From positions 169,427 through 233,426 of the forward strand of contig CAXXSB010000015.1 of assembly GCA_963664885.2 (NCBI GenBank): a stretch of DNA of 64,000 bases, written 5' to 3'. Each line of letters opens with the position of its first letter. Positions within the stretch are counted from its first letter, which is position 1. The notes beneath the pieces were generated by a model. That model searched no databases. It saw nothing but the letters and a program-made list of their open reading frames with translations, and was not told the origin of the DNA. The position numbers and the translations under genes were made by a program. Shown in pieces: positions 2,966 to 62,939 of the stretch. Origin of the DNA: Sulfurimonadaceae bacterium (GTDB lineage: Bacteria; Campylobacterota; Campylobacteria; Campylobacterales; Sulfurimonadaceae).

Positions 2966-3972
2966 AAATCATACAATCTTTACTTCTCACTCTCACGGCA
3001 TTCGTATTCATGGCATGTAGCCCTGATGCCAAGCCGCCGCATGCCATAAAACCGCCGCTTTGGTATGGCGATGAGAGCGCTTTGGCTCTTAACTCTTACG
3101 AGGTTGTGGGGTTTGGCGAGGGGAACAGCTTGGCAGAGGCGCTATCACATGCCAAAGAGATGATCGCCCAAAAACTTCAAAGCCGCGTCGAATCGAGTTT
3201 TGAGAGTGTGAGCACGAATGAAGCGATCATAAGCAAAGCAAAGCTCAAAGTCACAAGCGCGCTCACCCTCGATGCACTTCAAACCCTCAAGCAAGAACCT
3301 GCAAACAACCTCTTTTACGTAGCGCTGAGCTATAAAAATCTTGATTTTGCCCAGCGTGTCAAAGAGCAACTCGGTGCCATGGCATGTGAGGATGCGCCTC
3401 AAAACCCTTACCTAGCGCAAACGCCCCTTTTTAAAAAGCTCAACGACGCTTTGGGGTGCAAAAAAGATTTCCGCCTGATACGCCAAAACAAAGCGTGGTA
3501 TCTCAAACTCGATACCCATCTGTTTTTACTGGGCGATGGGGAGTTTGAGGAGCTTTTTGTTACGACGAAAAACGGAGCATTGCAGTTTATCGCTTCAAAG
3601 CAGTTGCTCCAAGAGGGGGAGAGCTTTCACTTTGTGGCGAGTGCAAACGAAGCGGGGTATGTCACCCTCTTAGATATGTATGAGAGCGGCGTCGTAACCC
3701 TGTTACAGCCTTCTGTAAAACTGGAAAAAACCCTCCGCATCCCCTCGGTAGAGAGCGCGTACGAGTTTGAAGCGGGCGTACTTGAAGCGGGGCGTGATTC
3801 GCATGATCTTTATGTCGCGTTTTTTACGGATGAACCGCTTGATATGAGCCGTTTCACCTACGCAAACGAAGATTTTGCAAGCGATGAAAACGCGTATAAA
3901 TTTGATGAGCTTTTGGAGTTGATGCAGCGATATACACATGCTACCCTCTTGCTGAGAACAGAGGCGAAGTAG
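2962..3972 (+). CDS. Lipoprotein with a DUF4384-like C-terminal domain
   Basis: Lipobox FMAC at residues 16-19. ATGA overlap with the caspase gene stop. GYVTLLDMYESGVVTLLQP resembles DUF4384, a domain that often accompanies bacterial caspase-like proteins. Confidence 0.65.
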   Translation: MKIIQSLLLTLTAFVFMACSPDAKPPHAIKPPLWYGDESALALNSYEVVGFGEGNSLAEALSHAKEMIAQKLQSRVESSFESVSTNEAIISKAKLKVTSALTLDALQTLKQEPANNLFYVALSYKNLDFAQRVKEQLGAMACEDAPQNPYLAQTPLFKKLNDALGCKKDFRLIRQNKAWYLKLDTHLFLLGDGEFEELFVTTKNGALQFIASKQLLQEGESFHFVASANEAGYVTLLDMYESGVVTLLQPSVKLEKTLRIPSVESAYEFEAGVLEAGRDSHDLYVAFFTDEPLDMSRFTYANEDFASDENAYKFDELLELMQRYTHATLLLRTEAK

Positions 3973-4115: not shown

Positions 4116-4331
4116 ATGCCCATGCAAACGATTCATATAGAGGTACAAGATACCTACGCAAAAAAAGTTTTGGCTTTGCTTGAGAGCTTACGCGGTGTTA
4201 TGCTTGAAGATATCAAAATAGAAAAAAAACCGTTGAAGCAAGATACTCCCCACGAACTTATAGAAGCGCAACAAAATGTTATGCAATCTACATGGGACAA
4301 TGAACAAGATAAGGCATGGGATGCATTATAA
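4116..4331 (+). CDS. Putative antitoxin of the downstream MazF/PemK-like toxin
   Basis: A 71-aa ORF that overlaps the toxin start by 11 nt. The call rests on position and size, and no family was recognised. Confidence 0.55.
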   Translation: MPMQTIHIEVQDTYAKKVLALLESLRGVMLEDIKIEKKPLKQDTPHELIEAQQNVMQSTWDNEQDKAWDAL

Positions 4332-4647
4332 AAGCGGTGATATTTTACTGATACGGTTCCCTTTTACCGATTTGACGCAAGTCAAAAAAAGACCCGTATT
4401 AGTCATTAAAAGCGATAACGAGTTAGGTGATATCGTTTGTTTTCAGATTACTTCCCAGCCACATGCCAAGAATACTTTGGCGCTTGAAAACGGTTCTTTC
4501 AAAAGCGGAGAACTCAAGCTAAAATCTTTTGTCAAATATGATAAATGTTTTACCCTCAATACTGCCATCGTAGAGAAAAAGTTGGCGACCGTAACGATGG
4601 ATTTTATGGCTAAAACTAAAGAACTTTTTTGTAACGAAAACTTTTAG
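4321..4647 (+). CDS. MazF/PemK-family type II toxin (mRNA interferase-like)
   Basis: N-terminal GDILLIRFPFTDLTQVKKRPVLVI is typical of PemK/MazF. The start was moved to the internal ATG (MHYKSG) of ORF 4276..4647. Confidence 0.75.
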   Translation: MHYKSGDILLIRFPFTDLTQVKKRPVLVIKSDNELGDIVCFQITSQPHAKNTLALENGSFKSGELKLKSFVKYDKCFTLNTAIVEKKLATVTMDFMAKTKELFCNENF

Positions 4648-4694
4648 AGGGTTTTAGAGAACAAAAAAGGTTTGATTGCGGGCTAAAGCCCGCC

Positions 4695-5204
4695 TTACGC
4701 CTCGTGTTTGAGTGCTTTTTTGCTAAACTCTACCGAGCAGAAAAAGAGGGTGACGAAGAGGGGGTTGATGGTTGCGCGGTTGGCTTCAAAATCGATCGTC
4801 TCAAATATATGAAGTTTTAGCTCATCGCCGTGTGCGGTATTTTTGGGTTTGATCGTAAACTCCACGGGTGCTAGGGTTTTGATCATCCCGATCACTCTTT
4901 TTTTCTTCTTTTCGCTGGTAAGATCAAGCAGGTTAAAGTCGTAGTTATCCGCGCTTTTGTGGAGTGAGAGTACCTCTTCGAGGGCTAAGAATTTGTCTTT
5001 AAAGATAATTTTGTTCCATGAAAGTATGGCATGTTCACTTGTAAGCGTGCATTTGGATGAGGTGAGCGGCGTGGGTTTGTTTTGGCGGATCGTTTCGATG
5101 AGTCCCAAAAGAAAGTTTGCGCCCCCGAGTGTTTGCGCGGCTTGTTTGATTATACTGCTTAGAAGCGCTTTTGCCGCGTCGTTTTGGAGGTTGAAATTGC
5201 ACAT
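4695..5204 (-). CDS. Hypothetical protein
   Basis: A 169-aa ORF with AAAGG about 8 nt upstream of its ATG. No recognisable motif. Confidence 0.45.
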   Translation of the reverse strand: MCNFNLQNDAAKALLSSIIKQAAQTLGGANFLLGLIETIRQNKPTPLTSSKCTLTSEHAILSWNKIIFKDKFLALEEVLSLHKSADNYDFNLLDLTSEKKKKRVIGMIKTLAPVEFTIKPKNTAHGDELKLHIFETIDFEANRATINPLFVTLFFCSVEFSKKALKHEA

Positions 5205-5382
5205 AAAGTACCTTTGTGTTTTAGATGTGCAATTATAACTTCTTTGAATCTTAAAACAAATAGAGTGTCAGTTTCATTTAAGCATATCGTAATATCAAAG
5301 GTACTATTATCACGTCACTAAAACAAGACAAAAAGTGTCTTATTTAAAATCGGAGGGGTAAAACCCTCTTTAAAAAAGGTAA

Positions 5383-6606
<1,224 letters not shown>

Positions 6607-6627
6607 GGTAAAGTGATGTGTGATGAG

Positions 6628-6648
6628 ATTCCGTGTCAAGCACGGAAT
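6628..6648. repeat. Small hairpin element attccgtg-tcaag-cacggaat
   Basis: Perfect 8-bp stem in the nifS-nifU spacer. The architecture resembles the TTCCCACGC REP family. Confidence 0.5.
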
Positions 6649-6745
6649 GACAGAAATTTGGCATTGTAAATCTACCGAGTTTCGTCACCATGAACCTTAA
6701 AGAAACATCGTAGTGCTTGCGCTTCGCTTGTTTTGAATCGGGTTG

Positions 6746-6775
6746 TCGTCACCCTGAACTCGATTCAGGGTCTAG
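6746..6775. repeat. 30-nt intergenic repeat tcgtcaccctgaactcgattcagggtctag (copy 1)
   Basis: Identical 30-mer at 19254-19283. It contains the hairpin accctgaa-ctcga-ttcagggt. A partial copy (agtttcgtcaccatgaacc) sits at about 6677-6695. Confidence 0.8.
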
Positions 6776-53439: not shown

Positions 53440-53898
53440 TTAAGAGAGATTTTGAAGTGTTAGTAAATAATTGACAATAGGAAGATTTTCTTGGGCTTGA
53501 TACTCTTTTATCGTACATGCCAAGGCTTCGGAAATATCTAAGGGATGTTTTTTGACGATAACTGCCAAATCTTCTGCCAAGATATCAAGTCGCAGTGTAA
53601 TGATATTCCAAACCTCCTCAACGTCAATCCCGAAATAAGCGTGCACAATCGTATTTCTAAAATTAACGATTTTTCTAAAATAGCTAGGGGCTGACGCATT
53701 AAAAGCTGTATGATGAAGCAATTTGTTGAGAGCCTCCCCGATGATTTCAAGCTGTCTCATGGATGCATCCCAGTGAAGGGAGCTATGTTGAAAATCGTTT
53801 GGACTCGCAAAAGGGGATGAGTAGAGTTTTATCTTTTCGATAGCCACAAAAATATCGACGATAAAAAGTTCAATATTTCTCGTAGTTTGCTTAGACAT
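53440..53898 (-). CDS. hepT: HepT-like HEPN/DUF86 toxin
   Basis: FRNTIVHAYFGID R-x4-H motif. The start is set at the internal ATG, which overlaps the mntA stop by 8 nt. Confidence 0.85.
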   Translation of the reverse strand: MSKQTTRNIELFIVDIFVAIEKIKLYSSPFASPNDFQHSSLHWDASMRQLEIIGEALNKLLHHTAFNASAPSYFRKIVNFRNTIVHAYFGIDVEEVWNIITLRLDILAEDLAVIVKKHPLDISEALACTIKEYQAQENLPIVNYLLTLQNLS

Positions 53899-54178
53899 AA
53901 ATAATATCTTGTTCGATTTTAGTTTTGTAATATTCTCTGATAGAGTCAAGATAACCTACATCTACAGGCGTCTTAAAGTTGGTTTCCAAGTACTCTTTAA
54001 GATCTTCCCGAAGGAAAAAATCTTTCTTTTTGGATTCTATAACGATGTCAATATCGCTGTTTTCAGTAGCCGTATCTTTTGCGTAACTTCCAAAAAGTCC
54101 GATTTTTGTGAGCGAAAATCTGTGTTGTAACTCTTGTTTATGAGTTATTAAAAAATCTAAAATATATTCTTTGTTCAT
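53891..54178 (-). CDS. mntA: MntA-like minimal nucleotidyltransferase antitoxin
   Basis: GLFGSYAKD...SDIDIV (GS-x10-DxD NTase motif). The start is set at MNKEYIL, and the long N-terminal extension in the ORF track is rejected. Confidence 0.85.
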   Translation of the reverse strand: MNKEYILDFLITHKQELQHRFSLTKIGLFGSYAKDTATENSDIDIVIESKKKDFFLREDLKEYLETNFKTPVDVGYLDSIREYYKTKIEQDIIYV

Positions 54179-54404
54179 ATTTCGCCCCCTTTTGGAATAT
54201 TTTTGTGTAAAAGTATAGCGAAATTCAAAAAAATTAAATCTCTCTAAGAGCCGCCTCATGCTCTTTTTTAAAGCGGCGAAAAGCGGTTTTGACGTGTTCG
54301 AGAGTGGGTTTTGAGACATATTGCAACAACGCATCAAAAGTTAAATCGTAGTGATATTTTTGAAGCAAAAATCTCTAGTAGACAAAGCTACATGCCATGA
54401 AAAA

Positions 54405-54470
54405 ATTAAACGACACAATGTACATTTAACACTTTTTTCGACTATTTAAACGACAAAATGTCCAAATAAC
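54405..54470. repeat. Two about 26-nt direct repeats (attaaacgacacaatgtacatttaac / atttaaacgacaaaatgtccaaataac)
   Basis: Read directly. They lie in the non-coding left edge of the AT-rich island, 200-260 nt upstream of the first island gene. Confidence 0.5.
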
Positions 54471-54668: not shown

Positions 54669-55100
54669 TTGGCAGAACATATCAAACCATTTGATGCACA
54701 GAATTTAGAAGCAATTTGTAAAGTTTTAGCTGATACCAGCAATGGTTTAACGGGTACACAAATTGGATATATTTTACAAGATTGCAAAGTACAAGATACA
54801 GACCCATCTGCGACTAAATGGAAGCGTCTATTCAATGCAATGGCAAATAAACAAAATGAGCGTAAAATTGGTAATTTTTTAATAATGTTTATTACTAGAG
54901 CGATGAATCCAGTAAATTATTCAAGAGACAAAGAAATATTTGAATGGCGTAGAACAGAATTGAATATTGTTTTGTCTTTCTCTGGCTTTGAAATTAGAGA
55001 AGATGGAAAAGTTATTAAAAGTTCAAAGGAAACAACATTAAGAGGAGCAAGAGAACGAGCTGGTGCACTCAGGTTAAAACTAGAGGTATACTGCCACTAA
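54669..55100 (+). CDS. Protein resembling the N-terminal region of TIGR02391-family proteins. The last 3 codons and the stop are supplied by the IS.
   Basis: LEAICKVLADTSNGLTGTQIGYIL...DPSATKWKRLFNAMA matches my recollection of that N-terminal module. The TIGR02391 (Hypoth_Ymh) domain itself is absent. GAGGAG RBS. Confidence 0.5.
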   Translation: MAEHIKPFDAQNLEAICKVLADTSNGLTGTQIGYILQDCKVQDTDPSATKWKRLFNAMANKQNERKIGNFLIMFITRAMNPVNYSRDKEIFEWRRTELNIVLSFSGFEIREDGKVIKSSKETTLRGARERAGALRLKLEVYCH

Positions 55101-56387
55101 AATATCAGACAGCAATTTGAGAGGAGATCTTCCTAAATGGTACAATTAAACAGACATTTAGGAGAGCGGATTATGAGTAAAAAGCGTAAGCAATATTCTG
55201 CGGAGTACAAGACGAAAGTGGTGCTTGAACTTTTGCAGGGAGATTTAACAGTGGCACAGGTGGCAAGCAAATATGAGATCACAGCCAAGAGTCTGACCGA
55301 CTGGAAGAAGCAGTTTTTAGAGAATGCATCGTTGGCGTTCGATTTGAGCGGAGCGACCAAATCATACAAAGATGAGATCGAAACCCTTAAAGAAGAGAAC
55401 GATGCATTAGCAAAAAAACTTGGCAAGACGACCATTGAACGCGATTGGGCAGTGGGAAAGCTAAAGAGCTTGGACTTATCAAATAAAAAAGATCTTGTCG
55501 ATTCCAAGCTCAGTGACATTCCAGTGGCAAGACAATGCGAGATGATCGAGCTGAACCGATCAGCACTCTATTACGAAGCAAAGCCGATTCGTCAGTACGA
55601 TTTGAAGATCATGCGGCGAATTGATGAAATCTACACTGGTATATCCTCGACCTACGGCTATCGTTTCATGCACCGCCAGCTGCTCGAAGACGGCTTTTCA
55701 ATCGGGGTCAATAAGGTAAACCGGCTGATGAATGTGATGGGGATACAGGCAATCTTTCCGAAAAAGCGCAAGCTCACGTCCATCAAGAACCACGAGCACA
55801 AGATTTATCCCTATCTTCTCAAAGAGCTGCAAATTACCAAACCCAATCAGGTCTGGAGCGGCGACATCACCTACATTCGAACCCATGGCGGGTTTATGTA
55901 CCTGGCGGCGATCATCGACTGGCATAGCAGATCCATTCTCGCTTGGAAACTATCCAATACAATGGATACGCTTCTCGCAACCGATGTACTCAAAGAAGCC
56001 ATCGACAAATACGGAACACCGGAGATTTTTAACTCCGATCAAGGGTCACAATATACGAGCTTTGAACATACGAAAATACTCAAGGATCACGGCATAAGAA
56101 TTTCCATGAACGGTAAAGGCAGATCGATCAATAATATCGCCATCGAACGTTTCTTTAGAACGCTAAAATACGATGAAATCTACATTAACGATTACCAAAG
56201 TATCAGCCATCTTCGCAATAGCATTGCAAAGTATATGAACTTTTACAATTTCAATAGGTTTCATTCGGCACTTGGCTATAAAAAACCGATGAACGTATAT
56301 CTGGAAGGAGTTAAAAAAGTTGGTTAGGCATTTAGCAGGCGGTGGGAAGATGAACTCTCAAAATCCTGTCTTGACATTTGGTGGCAG
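55091..56387 (+). mobile_element. IS3-family insertion sequence, about 1.3 kb
   Basis: Imperfect terminal inverted repeats of about 45 bp (ctgccactaaaatatcagacagcaatttgagag / reverse complement ctgccaccaaatgtcaagacaggattttgagag). 4-bp target duplication TATA (55087-55090 and 56388-56391). GC content is higher than that of the flanking DNA. Confidence 0.85.
55173..56327 (+). CDS. IS3-family DDE transposase (OrfA-OrfB in one continuous frame)
   Basis: N-terminal HTH (YSAEYKTKVV), leucine-zipper-like region, and a DDE core with WSGDITY, NSDQGSQYTS and the catalytic E in AIERFFRTLK. An A7 run is present at the usual frameshift position. Confidence 0.9.
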   Translation: MSKKRKQYSAEYKTKVVLELLQGDLTVAQVASKYEITAKSLTDWKKQFLENASLAFDLSGATKSYKDEIETLKEENDALAKKLGKTTIERDWAVGKLKSLDLSNKKDLVDSKLSDIPVARQCEMIELNRSALYYEAKPIRQYDLKIMRRIDEIYTGISSTYGYRFMHRQLLEDGFSIGVNKVNRLMNVMGIQAIFPKKRKLTSIKNHEHKIYPYLLKELQITKPNQVWSGDITYIRTHGGFMYLAAIIDWHSRSILAWKLSNTMDTLLATDVLKEAIDKYGTPEIFNSDQGSQYTSFEHTKILKDHGIRISMNGKGRSINNIAIERFFRTLKYDEIYINDYQSISHLRNSIAKYMNFYNFNRFHSALGYKKPMNVYLEGVKKVG

Positions 56388-56934
56388 TATAACTGACAAC
56401 AATACTAGACCTATTTTTAATTGGAATAGTAATGTAAAAAGTGTACTTTATGAAAATGCAACATTCACCTTTTGGAATGAATTTAAATACTCTGATGCTC
56501 TGTGGTTTTTAGACTTATCAAAAGGGTATGATGAACAGAAACACGAGGTATATGAGCTTATTGATATATCAATTAAATTAATTCATGCCAATTCTAAAAG
56601 CAGTAGCAAGGTACTAGAACAACATTTGCAGACATTGAGAATTGGACTACTGAGCTATAGTAAGTTCTTATCCCCAAATACTAACCCCATTCTAACCAAA
56701 ATAATAGAAGAGTTTGAAGATGATAAATATTGGCTTGTATGGCTCACTTTATTTGAAATGGTAATGCAATCACCTGATAATTGGGCTTTCTCTTCTAATG
56801 AGGAACTAATTAATTTTTATAAAAATATTAGTTTAAAAAAGTCTTGGGCAAATGTCATAAAAGAAATCAATACACCAAGAAATGAATATTTAAGAGATTT
56901 ACTTAATACTTTTGTTCAAGAGTTATCTATTTGA
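56350..56934 (+). CDS. Hypothetical helical protein whose only ATG lies inside the IS right end
   Basis: The frame is open from 56320. No ATG/GTG/TTG start exists downstream of the IS boundary (56387) for well over 100 codons. No family recognised. Confidence 0.4.
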   Translation: MNSQNPVLTFGGSITDNNTRPIFNWNSNVKSVLYENATFTFWNEFKYSDALWFLDLSKGYDEQKHEVYELIDISIKLIHANSKSSSKVLEQHLQTLRIGLLSYSKFLSPNTNPILTKIIEEFEDDKYWLVWLTLFEMVMQSPDNWAFSSNEELINFYKNISLKKSWANVIKEINTPRNEYLRDLLNTFVQELSI

Positions 56935-56964
56935 TAAAATCTATAACAAATCAGAGGAGTTAAT

Positions 56965-57324
56965 TTGAAAGACACCGTAGTCATTTTTATTATAATTGTT
57001 GGGGTTGCGAATATAGCATTAAATATTTTTATCAGCAAAGCAGCGACTTTACACACATCTTATTTCGAAGCAATGAAATCAACTACATTTATGATTGCAT
57101 TTCTTATTGGAACTTTTTCTATTTTATCTATGCTTTACTTATATTACAGCAAGGTAGACTTAGGCAGAGCAATATTGTTGATGGGGGCTACTTCAATAAT
57201 AGGCGGAAGCTTATACGGTATCTTATTTCATGGTAATAAATTCGATTGGGCGGAAATTGTAATTTTAGTGTTTATTGGTAGTCTATATTCTTACCGTCTT
57301 TTTATCAAACCGTACTTTTCATAA
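56965..57324 (+). CDS. Small 4-TM membrane protein, SMR/EamA-half-like
   Basis: Four hydrophobic segments in 119 aa. TTG start with GAGGAG 5 nt upstream. Confidence 0.6.
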   Translation: MKDTVVIFIIIVGVANIALNIFISKAATLHTSYFEAMKSTTFMIAFLIGTFSILSMLYLYYSKVDLGRAILLMGATSIIGGSLYGILFHGNKFDWAEIVILVFIGSLYSYRLFIKPYFS

Positions 57325-57408
57325 TTACAAAGCAAATAAACATCCTTTGGAACACCGCACACCAATATGAAAAAATAGTTATATAAAAACCACAGGAGAC
57401 CAATTAAA

Positions 57409-57449
57409 AACCCTCGGGCAGCTTTTTGATTGGTCATTTTAAACGTTAT
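57409..57449. repeat. About 40-nt repeat, copy 1 (accctcgggcagctttttgattggtcattttaaacgttat)
   Basis: Second copy at 58424-58461. Each lies just downstream of an island gene and upstream of the next one. Confidence 0.6.
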
Positions 57450-57470
57450 ACAAATTAAAAGGAACTTTAT

Positions 57471-58391
57471 TTGAAACAAGAAAAACTTTATCCATATACA
57501 TTGTTTATTGATATTTTAGGGTATTCAGATAAAATAAAAAATATATCTAATAGTTGTGAATCTTCAGAAATCTTTGATTTATTAAATTATATAGAATTAT
57601 CTATAACTGACTACTTTAAATTAGCGAAAGACTCTAAATCTCATAAAGAGTACAACATGCACTATACATTTTTTTCCGATTGTATTGTTTTATCTTTTGT
57701 ACCCAAAGAAAATTTAACTATTTCCAATAATGAAATTATATACTTCAATGAGACTACTTTAGAGTTTATTTTTACTTGGATAATGAACATACAATTTATA
57801 TCTTTATTGAAAACAGGGTTTTTATTAAGAGGTGGTATTTCCATTAAAGATATATATTGGGATAAAAAGAACAGAGTTGTTGGACCAGCCTTAATTGAAG
57901 CATATAACTTAGAATCAAAAAAAGCCGACTGGCCTAGAATTGTTTTATCTGAAGATATTACTAAAGATAAAAAACTTGTCCATTTGCTTAATAGTATTTC
58001 TATGAATTCTGACTCCACATACTTACCTCACATCTTAATATATCAAGAAAGTAATGAGTCTGTTGGTTATTACAACTACATAGGTAGAATGTTGGCTAGA
58101 TTAAATCCTAATGTATTAAATGAAATTGATAAGAATATATTGCCACACCTTAGTGGAAATGTTATAAATATTAACAATAATCTAACTAAAGAGCAATATT
58201 TAGAAATTGCTGAAATGACCGACGCTTTTTTAGAACAGCATCAAAAAATAATTGAAAATAATTTACATAACAATGATAAAAAAATAAAAAATAAATATAT
58301 TAAATTGAAAAAATATCATAACAATGCTTTAGAGGATTTTGTAAAATACAATCATGAGTGGGCGATACTACTAGAACTACAGGTAACTTAA
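57471..58391 (+). CDS. Protein with an N-terminal nucleotidyl-cyclase (class III / GGDEF-like palm)-like region and a helical C-terminal extension
   Basis: The motif order is YTLFIDILGYSD (first Asp), FFSDCIVLSF (second Asp), LLRGGISIKDIYW, then VVGPALIEAYNLES..WPRIVLS. This mirrors FxDIxGFT ... GD ... RIGIHxG ... GxxVNxAARLE. TTG start with AAAGGA upstream. The ORF itself is solid, but the domain call is tentative. Confidence 0.5.
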   Translation: MKQEKLYPYTLFIDILGYSDKIKNISNSCESSEIFDLLNYIELSITDYFKLAKDSKSHKEYNMHYTFFSDCIVLSFVPKENLTISNNEIIYFNETTLEFIFTWIMNIQFISLLKTGFLLRGGISIKDIYWDKKNRVVGPALIEAYNLESKKADWPRIVLSEDITKDKKLVHLLNSISMNSDSTYLPHILIYQESNESVGYYNYIGRMLARLNPNVLNEIDKNILPHLSGNVININNNLTKEQYLEIAEMTDAFLEQHQKIIENNLHNNDKKIKNKYIKLKKYHNNALEDFVKYNHEWAILLELQVT

Positions 58392-58423
58392 ATATATAAC
58401 AAGTACGAAGAACGCAATAATTT

Positions 58424-58461
58424 ACCCTGCGGGCAATTCATTGGCTCATTTTAAACGTTAT
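58424..58461. repeat. About 40-nt repeat, copy 2 (accctgcgggcaattcattggctcattttaaacgttat)
   Basis: The 3' 22 nt match copy 1 with one mismatch. The 5' part keeps a ccc-N2/3-ggg mini-hairpin. Confidence 0.6.
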
Positions 58462-58525
58462 CTTAACAAATGAATTGACACTGTAATGTAATTACAATAT
58501 AATTACGTAATCGAAAGGAGTTCAT

Positions 58526-58786
58526 ATGGCATCTTTAATCAAAATCGGTAATTCGCAAGGTATCAGACTCCCCAAAGCGATCATAAAACAGGCACATCTT
58601 GAAAATGCAGAGTTGGAATTCGAAGTTCTTGAAAACGGCCTATTGATCAAACCGTCGAACAATGTCGGCAGAGAAGTCTGGAAAAAAAATATTCAAAATG
58701 TTATGATGGCCAATCAAGGCAAGGTCGATGAAGCACTTTTGGACGATATGCTAAACGACAGTGATCTGGATGATTACGAATGGTAG
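58526..58786 (+). CDS. mazE: MazE/AbrB (SpoVT-AbrB)-family antitoxin
   Basis: IKIGNSQGIRLPKAII swapped-hairpin motif and an acidic C-terminus. Confidence 0.8.
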   Translation: MASLIKIGNSQGIRLPKAIIKQAHLENAELEFEVLENGLLIKPSNNVGREVWKKNIQNVMMANQGKVDEALLDDMLNDSDLDDYEW

Positions 58787-59106
58787 TCGATATTCAAAGG
58801 TACGAAATTTACCTTGTGAAACTGAACCCGACAGTTGGATCTGAAATTCAGAAAACACGCCCCTGCATCGTCATCTCTCCCAATGAAATGAATGTCTTGA
58901 AAACCGTCATCGTAGCGCCTATGACCAGCAAAGGGTTTGACTTTATATTCAGACCTAAGATCAAATTTGAAAACAAAAATGGATTGGTGTTGCTAGACCA
59001 GATCAGAACCGTCGATAAGACAAGATTGATCAAAAAAATCGGCGATGTTGACGAACGCGTATCTAAAAATATTTCCGACATGCTGGTAAAAATGTTCGAA
59101 TACTAA
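58780..59106 (+). CDS. mazF: MazF/PemK-family endoribonuclease toxin
   Basis: YLVKLNPTVGSEIQKTRPCIVISP and LLDQIRTVDKTRL blocks. 7-nt overlap with mazE. Confidence 0.85.
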   Translation: MVVDIQRYEIYLVKLNPTVGSEIQKTRPCIVISPNEMNVLKTVIVAPMTSKGFDFIFRPKIKFENKNGLVLLDQIRTVDKTRLIKKIGDVDERVSKNISDMLVKMFEY

Positions 59107-59177: not shown

Positions 59178-59420
59178 ATGAATACTTCGATAACTAGAAT
59201 TGATTTTGGAGATAAAATTTATGTCTATCTCAAAAGCAACGATATCTTGACCCTTCCTTACAGCTATACAAAAAAAATTCAAAAAGCTACAAAAGAGCAG
59301 CTCCTTAACTACCGTCTTATCGGCGGTGGGGTCGGTGTTCATTTTGAAGATATAGACGAAGATATCTCACTCAGTGGCATTATTGCGTATAAAACTTCCC
59401 ATGAGCTTAGAGCTTCTTAG
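59178..59420 (+). CDS. DUF2442-family small protein
   Basis: GGGVGVHFEDIDEDISLSGI matches the DUF2442 signature (xWPxLDEDISVxGL). Confidence 0.7.
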   Translation: MNTSITRIDFGDKIYVYLKSNDILTLPYSYTKKIQKATKEQLLNYRLIGGGVGVHFEDIDEDISLSGIIAYKTSHELRAS

Positions 59421-59649: not shown

Positions 59650-60313
59650 ATGAGAGTAGCAGTGGTTGGTTTAGGTGGCGTGGGAGGATATATCGCCGCA
59701 TCTTTGGCAAAAACAGAGCATGAAGTTGTAGGATTTGTTAGAGGCGCACACTTGGAGGCAATCCAAAAGAGTGGTTTGCAAATCATCGAAGATACAGCTT
59801 CATGGCATGTAAGCAGTTTAGGGAACATGTGCATAAAGATTCGATTGTAAAAAAGCAAGGTTTTTTCTGCTGTTTTTGGTGGAAAGAGCGATGCGACACA
59901 AACTTTGGCACAACTCTTTGATGCCGCTTCTTTGCGCTACAAAACCCCTGAAGATATACGCACGGCTGTCTGGAAAAAATACATTTTCATCTCTGCTTTT
60001 GCAACACTTACAAGTTACTACGACACTTCCATCGGAGCGATTTATGAAAAACATTTTGACGAGGCAAAAGTACTTTTACAAGAGATAGCAAATATTGCAT
60101 ATGCCATGAATATTGATATTTACGATGAGGTGGAAAAAGCCCTTGAGACGGCAAAAAATCTCCCCTATGATTCAAGTACTTCGATGCATCTCGATTTTAC
60201 GAACTACAAAGCCACAGAGCTTGAGTGGCACTATTGTTTCTAAAGGGTTAGAATATAGCGTTGATGTCTCTTTGATGCAGCAGTTCTACCAAGGGCTCAA
60301 ACAAAGAGGCTAA
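59650..60313 (+). pseudogene. Degenerate paralogue of 2-dehydropantoate 2-reductase (panE)
   Basis: Aligns with the intact copy at 62064..62939. It has an internal deletion of about 95 codons, an in-frame TAA at 59848-59850 and a frameshift near 60225. Confidence 0.8.
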
Positions 60314-62063: not shown

Positions 62064-62939
62064 ATGAGAATTGCAGTCGTGGGGCTCGGCGGGGTCGGGG
62101 GATATTTGGCGGCTTCTTTGGCATGCAGCACGCATGAGGTGGTGGGATTTGCCCGCGGTGCGCATCTGGAAGCGATACAAAAAAACGGCATCACCGTCGT
62201 AGAGGATACAAAAACATGGCATGCCACATGCCAAGCCCAAGAGCTAAAAAACCCGAGCGGGGTGTTCGATCTTGTGCTCTTTTGCGTCAAGGGGTACGAT
62301 CTGCTCCCTTCGCTTGAAGCCCTCCGACATGCCATAACGCCCGATACGATTCTGCTCAGCTTTGCAAACGGCATCGAGAACGGCGAACTCTTGCGTCAAA
62401 ATATACATGCCAAGGTTTTGGACGGGTGCGTGTATATCCTCTCCCATATCGAAAAAGCAGGCGTGATCCGTAAAAAAGGGGAGGTTTTTGCGGCGGTTTT
62501 CGGCGGTGACAAAGAGGCGACGCACAAGGTTGCCGAGCTTTTTAAAGAGGCTCACTTACGCTATAAGACTCCCGAAAACATCCAAGAAGCGATATGGAAA
62601 AAGTATATTTTTATCGCCGCTTTTGCGACCCTTACAAGCACCTACGACGCCCCGATAGGCGCGATCTACAAAGAGCACTACGATGAGGCAAAAGCACTTT
62701 TGGAGGAGATCGCCGCGGTGGCACATGCCAAGGGGATAGAGATAGCCGATGAGGTACAAAAAGCGCTCGATACCGCATCCAAAGTTCCCTATGATTCAAG
62801 CACTTCGATGCATCTCGATTTTCAAAACCATAAGCCCACGGAGGTCGAGACCCTCAGCGGCACTATCGTGCGCGAAGGGGTGAAATACGGCATCAAAACA
62901 CCGCTTATGCAGAAGTTTTACGAGAAACTTCGCGGGTAG
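62064..62939 (+). CDS. panE: 2-dehydropantoate 2-reductase (ketopantoate reductase)
   Basis: N-terminal VVGLGGVGG Rossmann motif and C-terminal SSTSMHLDF, EVETLSG blocks. Confidence 0.85.
   Translation: MRIAVVGLGGVGGYLAASLACSTHEVVGFARGAHLEAIQKNGITVVEDTKTWHATCQAQELKNPSGVFDLVLFCVKGYDLLPSLEALRHAITPDTILLSFANGIENGELLRQNIHAKVLDGCVYILSHIEKAGVIRKKGEVFAAVFGGDKEATHKVAELFKEAHLRYKTPENIQEAIWKKYIFIAAFATLTSTYDAPIGAIYKEHYDEAKALLEEIAAVAHAKGIEIADEVQKALDTASKVPYDSSTSMHLDFQNHKPTEVETLSGTIVREGVKYGIKTPLMQKFYEKLRG

Follow-up and report, generated by a model that had tools for sequence, protein, structure and literature searches.

Pycsar systems reportedly pair a PycC cyclase with a transmembrane (TM) or TIR effector that is activated by a cyclic nucleoside monophosphate (cNMP). 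Another described system is the toxin-antitoxin (TA) pair PanT/PanA of the Burkholderia prophage phi52237, encoded by gp8 (YP_293707.1) and, directly upstream of it, gp9, a DUF4065 protein. This pair has been validated experimentally, as gp8 (PanT) is toxic and is both neutralized by and complexed with gp9 (PanA) (Kurata et al., 2022; PMC8832971). The same study called gp8 PanT a "putative nucleotide cyclase", with an HHpred probability of 97% to adenylate/guanylate cyclases, and described it as a growth-arresting toxin that inhibits transcription most and then translation, with RelA-dependent induction of ppGpp (PMC8832971). Phage-defense genes have also been reported on integron cassettes (bioRxiv 10.1101/2024.07.02.601719; PMC12614218). 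Here, we analyzed an open reading frame (ORF) of 306 amino acids (aa) in a 64,000-nucleotide (nt) stretch of DNA, hereafter the window, from a Sulfurimonadaceae bacterium (assembly GCA_963664885.2, contig CAXXSB010000015.1, positions 169,427 to 233,426 of the forward strand).

An earlier sequence-only reading of the window had described the 306-aa protein as a cyclase-homology-like protein that could form a Pycsar-like signaling module with a 119-aa protein with four TM segments encoded directly upstream, and had found no described system to match it to. That interpretation was right on the fold and on the conflict context, and wrong on the partner and on the lack of a described relative. We consider it rather more probable than any other reading that the locus is a self-contained integron cassette encoding an antitoxin-less, PanT-like stand-alone toxin or abortive-infection effector. 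The gene is an antitoxin-less, cassette-borne variant of a known but barely characterized toxin family, and it raises the question of how an antitoxin-less cyclase-fold toxin is restrained and what it makes.

Relationship to PanT and distribution of the family

Searches of phage genomes with tblastn gave matches in P2-like Burkholderia prophages, and the match in phi52237 was gp8. A profile of the family of the window protein (A4) aligned to gp8 over profile positions 14-254, nearly the whole length, with 139 bits and an E value of 8.5e-45, while BLASTP of the window protein itself against gp8 gave an E value of 2e-11 at 29% identity over 164 aa. Both proteins matched the same two phage protein families, phrog_23933 (4.6e-18 for the window protein) and gp8's own phrog_21097 (1e-6 for the window protein). 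Judged by these alignments, the 306-aa protein is a member of a PanT(Bur. phage)-like cyclase-fold family, and the statement that no described system corresponds to the locus no longer holds, given that this family includes an experimentally validated PanT. The fold assignment and toxicity are already published for one family member; we found no later paper on the gp8 PanT toxin in the literature.

The likeness to gp8 extends to the motifs FxDILGF, FSDxIV, RGGI and GPAxxxAYxxES..A..PR, to a similar length, and to the location of both genes on mobile DNA adjoining other TA genes. The two differ in that gp8 carries an N-terminal extension of ~45 residues, unlike the window protein, and in that gp8 is prophage cargo whereas the window gene is an integron cassette. 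They also differ in the antitoxin. No PanA homologue was detected by phmmer with gp9 among the ORFs of the window between 50 and 64 kb or of 41 non-redundant loci with a family member, and Pfam scans detected no DUF4065 domain in the flanking ORFs of the window. The sole experimental data point in the family is a potent transcription-blocking toxin, and 41 of 41 chromosomal or metagenomic loci are without its defining antitoxin.

A word-indexed search recovered 28 homologues, mostly from Aliarcobacter. The profile built from these 28 sequences matched 14,777 cluster representatives at E <= 1e-3 among 1.84 billion (clusters counted at 50% identity), 2,182 of which reached E <= 1e-30; members are mostly ~240-300 aa long. 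The 41 loci were distributed over Campylobacterota, Proteobacteria, Bacteroidota, Planctomycetota, Spirochaetota, Firmicutes, Actinobacteriota and Nitrospirota, with an archaeal metagenome-assembled genome in addition. Further members came from P2-like prophages and from plasmids (77 records), and in all four plasmid records inspected the gene was monocistronic and annotated as 'hypothetical protein'. This very large family reaches from numerous bacterial phyla to at least one archaeal genome and is carried by plasmids, P2-like prophages and integron cassettes, but Pfam, NCBIfam and PADLOC all lack a model for it, and its members are labeled hypothetical proteins throughout. The DefensePredictor and domain-centric defense-discovery papers mention diadenylate cyclases and Pycsar only, and leave this family unmentioned.

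Several members had additional regions. The family domain was fused to C-terminal TPR repeats in one 627-aa protein (P0088) and to a C-terminal multi-TM region in another of 458 aa (P0028), and three members (P0030, P0152 and P0157) had unannotated N-terminal extensions of 150-270 aa. Such fusions may represent sensor or effector modules. One locus (L011) held two family paralogues (4322-5218 and 6001-6765), separated by ~0.8 kb that include a 190-aa ORF, in the vicinity of a MazE-PIN pair, a Fic gene and transposases.

Cyclase-like palm and active site

The AlphaFold2 model of the 306-aa protein, built on the family alignment, had a pLDDT of 86.8 and a pTM of 0.86. Its N-terminal domain had the topology beta1 - helix - beta2/beta3 hairpin - helix - beta4, with D14 at the end of beta1 (residues 9-16) and D70 in the turn of the beta2-beta3 hairpin (residues 61-78). 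When this model was compared with the PDB by Foldseek, the top 50 matches were all class III adenylyl, guanylyl or uridylyl cyclases, 27 of them with E <= 1e-3. The best match had an E value of 3.1e-5 and a probability of 1.00, TM-scores normalized to the target were 0.43-0.62 among the top 25, and the solved uridylate cyclase 8jsz was found at rank 44. No polymerase, GGDEF or Cas10 structure was present among these 50. In a viral structure library, the best matches were also cyclase-domain proteins, and a viral GGDEF protein came sixth (E 0.097).

Profile evidence was weak but concordant. Searches of PDB sequences with the 306-aa protein (phmmer) and with family profiles A1 and A4 gave E values of ~0.2-1 to adenylate/guanylate cyclases, next to coiled-coil noise. 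The TPR-fused member P0088 was more informative when trimmed to its N-domain, which matched mycobacterial Rv1625c-type adenylate cyclases over residues 20-148 with E 2.8e-4; full-length P0088 searched against the PDB was swamped by its TPR repeats. P0088 also gave the best match of the family to the class III cyclase model PF00211 (E 9e-4; 19.3 bits, below the cut-off of 21.9), while the Pfam scan returned no PF00211 match for the 306-aa protein. Considering the predicted structure together with this weak but consistent sequence evidence, we regard the cyclase-like palm as real, in agreement with the sequence-only reading.

Four residues, D14, G17, D70 and G121, were invariant in 148 of 148 homologues of a diverse alignment in which mean column identity was ~19%, and R120 (144 of 148), G138, A144, E148, P155, R156, K275 and N284 were at least 90% conserved. 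The translation of the window ORF contains the motifs YTLFIDILGYSD, FFSDCIVLSF, LLRGGISIKDIYW, VVGPALIEAYNLES and WPRIVLSE, which had been singled out before; as far as this alignment indicates, they are not due to chance, given the residue conservation across the 148 homologues. D14 and D70, proposed earlier as metal-binding aspartates and now found to be invariant, are the putative metal ligands of the modeled active site. In alignments with Rv1625c-type cyclases, D14 falls on their first Asp and D70 within two residues of the second. In hidden Markov model (HMM) alignments, 'aFiDILGF' pairs with 'lFADIVGF' and 'FGPAlieAYxLES' pairs with WGDAVNVASRMES. The features common to the window protein and class III cyclases (CHD, PF00211; Rv1625c, CyaC, soluble guanylate cyclase) are thus the palm fold, a first metal Asp in an 'F-x-D-I-x-G-F' strand, a second at the beta2-beta3 hairpin, an 'R-x-G' strand and a 'G-x-A-x-x-x-A-x-x-x-E-S' helix. 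The hairpin sequence of the family is F-S/T-D-(N/S/C), not GG(D/E)EF or GGDD, and a GG(D/E)EF motif was not found in the 306-aa translation, as had been noted from the sequence.

The window protein also differs from class III cyclases. The transition-state Asn and Arg lie on helix alpha4, at positions that we take to be N372 and R376 in Rv1625c numbering; the aligned positions are occupied by I142 and N146 in the 306-aa protein, and across the family the first is Asn in 7 of 148 sequences and the second is Arg in 10 of 148. The canonical pair thus appears to be mostly lost across the family. The beta4-beta5 'arm' is ~7 residues shorter than in Rv1625c-type cyclases, and the window protein has a unique C-terminal domain and no regulatory domains. 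Given that the palm and metal site are conserved while Asn and Arg are replaced, the predicted active site departs from that of a canonical cyclase. With Asn and Arg lost and the arm shortened, and in view of the phenotype of PanT, a reaction other than cyclization is a real possibility.

One form that such chemistry could take is a palm nucleotidyltransferase that adds nucleotides to, or polymerizes them on, tRNA, other RNA or protein, with toxicity resulting from target damage rather than from a cyclic nucleotide that diffuses. The missing transition-state residues and the shortened arm would suit this enzyme, the conserved C-terminal domain could bind its substrate, and PanT leaves ATP and GTP pools almost unchanged yet induces ppGpp through RelA, as would be expected if uncharged tRNA accumulated and both transcription and translation were blocked. 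We nevertheless hold it to be unlikely, as the nearest structures are all cyclases rather than polymerases, GGDEF proteins or Cas10, no nucleic-acid-binding domain was detected in Pfam scans, and the target is hypothetical. A catalytically dead pseudo-cyclase, acting by binding, for instance by titrating away nucleotides or a host protein like RNA polymerase, would likewise account for the lost Asn and Arg and for the fact that no product was found for PanT. However, the invariance of both metal aspartates, G17 and G121 at such low overall identity is the pattern of a preserved active site, and we attach little probability to a dead enzyme.

The C-terminal part of the protein had been described as a helical extension. 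The model does contain three helices at residues 240-303, but the domain is not a plain helical tail, as these are preceded by a mixed alpha/beta region (161-209) and a disordered loop (218-235). It carries the motif K275-Y276-x-(W; K in the window protein)-x3-Y-H-N284, with K275 present in 146, W278 in 144 and N284 in 137 of the 148 family sequences. The domain had no Pfam match, including to AGS-C, and no PycC match.

Integron cassette and attC sites

The window gene is bordered on both sides by a ~77-nt repeat. Each copy consists of R'' (ATAAC), an imperfect hairpin with the apex CCCTGCGG, and then CATTTTAAAC directly followed by R' (GTTAT); the stem sequence varies between copies, whereas the apex is constant. 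A covariance model detected exactly two full copies in the window, plus one 5' half (Table 1). A second contig (L009) held a 97%-identical copy of the gene, with 97.2% DNA identity from window position 57441 (AAACGTTATAC) onward. Upstream of the shared DNA, HNH and TIR genes replaced the four-TM gene, and these genes were also bordered by the ~77-nt repeat. The L009 copy (3157-3824) diverged abruptly after codon 205 (…NYIG, stop, then unrelated sequence), a disruption that stems from an insertion or else from a join made in assembly; the window ORF is intact, and an identical copy was present in a second sample.

An exact-pattern scan of metagenomes for this repeat retrieved 74 environmental contigs (L052-L125), which account for 199 of the 208 copies that the covariance model located across 76 loci. 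The copies formed same-strand arrays with a spacing of 0.4-1.5 kb, and one contig (L125) held 12. Among 133 distinct copies, 87.7% of the cells in stem columns were paired, compared to 18-44% with a slid partner column, and changes on both sides occurred in 9 of 12 stem pairs. Divergently oriented TIGR02249 integron integrases (405-414 bits; cut-off 265) lay beside the arrays in L052, L056 and L085. Because of these same-strand arrays, the stem covariation and the adjoining integron integrases, the comparison indicates that the flanking repeats are integron attC sites. Within them, the inferred recombination point (GTT, between the G at 57445 and the T at 57446) sets the 5' boundary of the cassette with the 306-aa gene, and that of the cassette's own attC lies between 58457 and 58458. 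Positions 57446-58457, comprising the ORF and its attC, therefore make up one gene cassette, while the four-TM gene belongs to the preceding one.

As a single promoterless ORF followed by an attC, among the TA genes MazEF and HepT-MntA, and present in different arrays, the window cassette resembles integron toxin and defense cassettes. No sigma-70-like promoter was detected between the upstream attC and the start codon of the 306-aa ORF. The only perfect sigma-70 site (TTGACA-17-TATAAT, 58475-58503) lies directly 3' of the cassette's attC and serves mazE-mazF. Compared with sedentary chromosomal integrons and integrase-less attC clusters, the window has no integrase and two full attC sites only: a tblastn search of the 64-kb window with the integrase of L052 gave no integron integrase (best E 0.97). 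The local state is therefore a small attC cluster without an integrase.

These results document a distinct attC family and arrays with TIR, HNH and toxin cassettes, and lend weight to the idea that integrons store conflict genes. The PanT-like cargo family was not found reported from integrons in the literature searched, and a cassette-recovery preprint made no mention of cyclases; the 74 metagenomic attC contigs contained no additional member of the family. Across those contigs the attC family was coherent, with the apex described above, the 3' end CATTTTAAACGTTAT and long arrays with integron integrases. A promoter of their own, as seen here ahead of mazE-mazF, is typical of TA cassettes in integron arrays.

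The cassette and the family's distribution also bear on whether the protein has any conflict or addiction role, or whether it is instead an ordinary cAMP/cGMP-type signaling cyclase or inert cargo. Some family neighborhoods are purely metabolic, the cassette has no promoter and no integrase nearby, and the L009 copy is disrupted, all of which would be expected of such a gene. On the other side, the distribution is sporadic and mobile (integron cassette, plasmids and prophages), toxicity has been proven for one homologue, the protein lacks sensor and regulatory domains as well as a PF00211 match at threshold, and the ORF has remained intact with an identical copy in a second sample. An ordinary or inert role is thus quite improbable in our view.

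Neighboring genes and the four-TM protein

No neighbor family was conserved with the family gene. When ORFs of 60 aa or more from the 41 loci were compared all-vs-all by BLAST, no neighbor family occurred in more than 2 of 41. The neighbors were a mixture of integrases, relaxases, DISARM and type IIG restriction-modification proteins, an ABC-3C domain and TA genes. Two of 117 neighboring genes scanned matched DISARM DrmMI/DrmD and type IIG restriction-modification models. In two loci, L020 (1759-10161) and L044 (135-9011), the family member was located between very large genes (1,122-1,419 aa); these are most likely the two matching neighbors, which would place the family gene in DISARM-like loci.

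The four-TM protein has hydrophobic segments at residues 1-29, 39-62, 69-88 and 96-114 by Kyte-Doolittle analysis, in line with the four TM segments read from the sequence, and its suspected likeness to SMR transporters reached only a sub-threshold match to PF00893 (E 0.002; 19.1 bits, cut-off 23.7). Pfam detected no cNMP-binding domain in its 119 aa. Five homologues only were found in 5.8 billion clusters, none of the five adjoining a family member, so that the co-occurrence elsewhere that a functional pair would lead one to look for was not seen. Exact-sequence look-ups for the MsrAB and four-TM proteins gave no record.

The proposal of a Pycsar-like signaling system, with the 306-aa protein as cyclase and the four-TM protein as membrane effector, drew on the adjacency of two genes on the same strand and on the cyclase-like palm, in a defense and mobile context, and 8jsz is among the fold matches. 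A further point in its favor is a locus (L126) in which a four-TM homologue comes after a protein that carries 'AFSDC' and has a weak alignment to the family. The pairing, however, does not survive the cassette structure: an attC with its inferred recombination point separates the two genes, the L009 copy is preceded by HNH/TIR cassettes with identity starting at the attC core, and there is no conserved neighbor or operon partner. Neither does the architecture, as the window has no cNMP-binding effector and no family member has a significant PycC or AGS-C match, the PADLOC PycC model being touched by only 2 of 38 family members at E 0.0019, and 8jsz ranks only 44th. The Pycsar-like proposal is thus already largely refuted, and we regard it as very improbable. 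The fallback offered alongside it, that the cyclase-like protein may act alone, is favored by the data.

In L126 (2-1398), the four-TM homologue (39% identity) lies 3 bp downstream of a gene for a protein of more than 340 aa, and an ORC/CDC6-like ATPase gene comes next. The large protein has the motifs 'YAFSDCAFLG' and 'FFKAAVDVGNL' and aligned weakly to the family by hhalign (probability 29%). It may be a distant palm protein that is paired with a four-TM protein.

Proposed mode of action

The analysis shows that the window protein belongs to the PanT family, has a cyclase-like fold with conserved residues, is encoded on a cassette and has no conserved partner; its toxicity, its catalysis, its trigger and any role in phage defense are what we infer. 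On the PanT-like toxin reading, the window protein would work like PanT, as a two-metal nucleotidyl-transfer enzyme that converts nucleoside triphosphates into a harmful product or transfers them onto a macromolecular target. Macromolecular synthesis would be shut down and growth arrested. The protein would act as a stand-alone toxin or abortive-infection effector, and not as the signal generator of a two-component system. It would probably be tolerated through a promoterless and poorly expressed cassette, through a C-terminal domain that holds the enzyme inactive until a trigger, or through both.

Several observations weigh against this reading. The 29% identity to gp8 is limited to the palm, and there is no experimental datum for the window protein itself. 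The window protein deviates from its family at near-invariant sites of the C-terminal domain, with K instead of W278 and E instead of D193 (D in 137 of 148 sequences). It matched no Pfam, NCBIfam or PADLOC model, the only hits being noise (BORCS6, JetA and EF-G fragments). As few family members have the transition-state Asn or Arg, cyclase chemistry is unproven, and in the PanT study ATP and GTP pools were barely altered and the product was not identified (PMC8832971). A toxin without an antitoxin needs an explanation that we have so far supplied by inference, and antitoxins shorter than 60 aa or made of RNA lie beyond the ORF comparison. Many family neighborhoods hold ordinary metabolic genes. 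Finally, given that there is no integrase in the 64-kb window, the cassette may be immobile and silent here.

Extending the PanT-like toxin reading to the family, it is conceivable that most members are single-protein abortive-infection enzymes without an antitoxin, in which the C-terminal domain (K-Y-x-W...Y-H-N) replaces the second subunit of the cyclase dimer, supplies the missing catalytic residues and gates the site until a phage cue, and in which the product is a nucleotide new to bacterial immunity that stops transcription. We consider this combination of features a long shot.

Surroundings in the window

Both ORFs and the motifs quoted from them are present as originally described, in an AT-rich setting between MntA-HepT and MazEF (Table 1): GC content was 25-32% over 56.5-58.5 kb and 43-52% in the flanks. 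Pfam confirmed the identities that had been assigned to MntA, HepT, MazE and MazF. Sulfurimonadaceae metagenome-assembled genomes contain ketopantoate reductases that are at least 90% identical to the one encoded in the window, in keeping with a Sulfurimonadaceae host. The defense-island context holds insofar as this is a mobile island rich in TA and defense genes. What the first description had left out are three elements between MntA-HepT and the ORF pair, namely a PD-Lambda-3_B-like gene, an IS3-family element and a 204-aa ORF.

Table 1. Coordinates of the features discussed, numbered from the first nucleotide of the window.
Feature	Position	Strand	Evidence or remark
HepT	53440-53949	-	Pfam
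MntA-type nucleotidyltransferase	53891-54337	-	Pfam
143-aa PD-Lambda-3_B-like ORF	54669-55100	+	PADLOC PD-Lambda-3_B, E 4.9e-60
IS3-family element	55091-56387		Transposase ORF 55137-56327 (rve, HTH_21, HTH_Tnp_1)
204-aa ORF	56320-56934	+	No model match
5' half attC copy	56938-56996		Covariance model
119-aa four-TM ORF	56965..57324	+	
attC of preceding cassette	57378..57455	+	Covariance model R1, 78.2 bits, E 1.5e-12
306-aa ORF	57471..58391	+	TTG start; AAGGA ribosome-binding site 7-8 nt 5' of start
Predicted N-terminal palm domain (~residues 1-165)	57471..57965	+	Class III nucleotidyl-cyclase-like fold; AlphaFold2 and Foldseek
Predicted family-specific C-terminal domain (~residues 166-306)	57966..58388	+	AlphaFold2 secondary structure, conservation
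attC of 306-aa cassette	58391..58467	+	Covariance model R1, 83.7 bits, E 1.2e-13
MazE	58526-58786		Pfam
MazF	58780-59106		Pfam
DUF2442 protein	59178-59420		Pfam; 3' of mazE-mazF

The PADLOC match of the 143-aa ORF covers profile positions 3-138 of 270, which is the N-terminal half, and a PD-Lambda-3_A gene was not detected near it. By its sequence, the ORF seems to be a version of the PD-Lambda-3_B domain that is short by nature or works on its own. The IS3-family element has imperfect terminal inverted repeats of ~50 nt and a 4-bp TATA target duplication. Its insertion point coincides exactly with the stop codon of the 143-aa ORF, and excision in silico restores ...LKLEV-TAA. We therefore rejected two possibilities, namely that the element truncates the PD-Lambda-3_B-like gene or splits a longer gene, and that the 143-aa gene was once fused in frame with the 204-aa ORF, given that conceptual excision restores a stop codon at the insertion site.

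The listed start codon of the 204-aa ORF lies within the right end of the IS3-family element; with the element excised, its frame is open back to 55019 without an obvious start. It showed no relationship by hhalign to the cyclase-fold family or to the upstream protein of L126. Given that the 204-aa ORF is separated from the four-TM ORF solely by the half attC, the two may share one common cassette.

At 54406-54470, in the intergenic region upstream of the MntA-HepT operon, a 25-nt sequence (TTAAACGACA.AATGT.CA..TAAC) occurs twice in direct orientation, the two starts being separated by 40 nt; the repeats may serve as an operator. On the other side of the island, two ORF fragments of 66 and 112 aa at 59650-60243 are degraded copies of an intact ketopantoate reductase gene (62064-62939). 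This pseudogene marks the right edge of the AT-rich island, with the intact gene 2 kb downstream.

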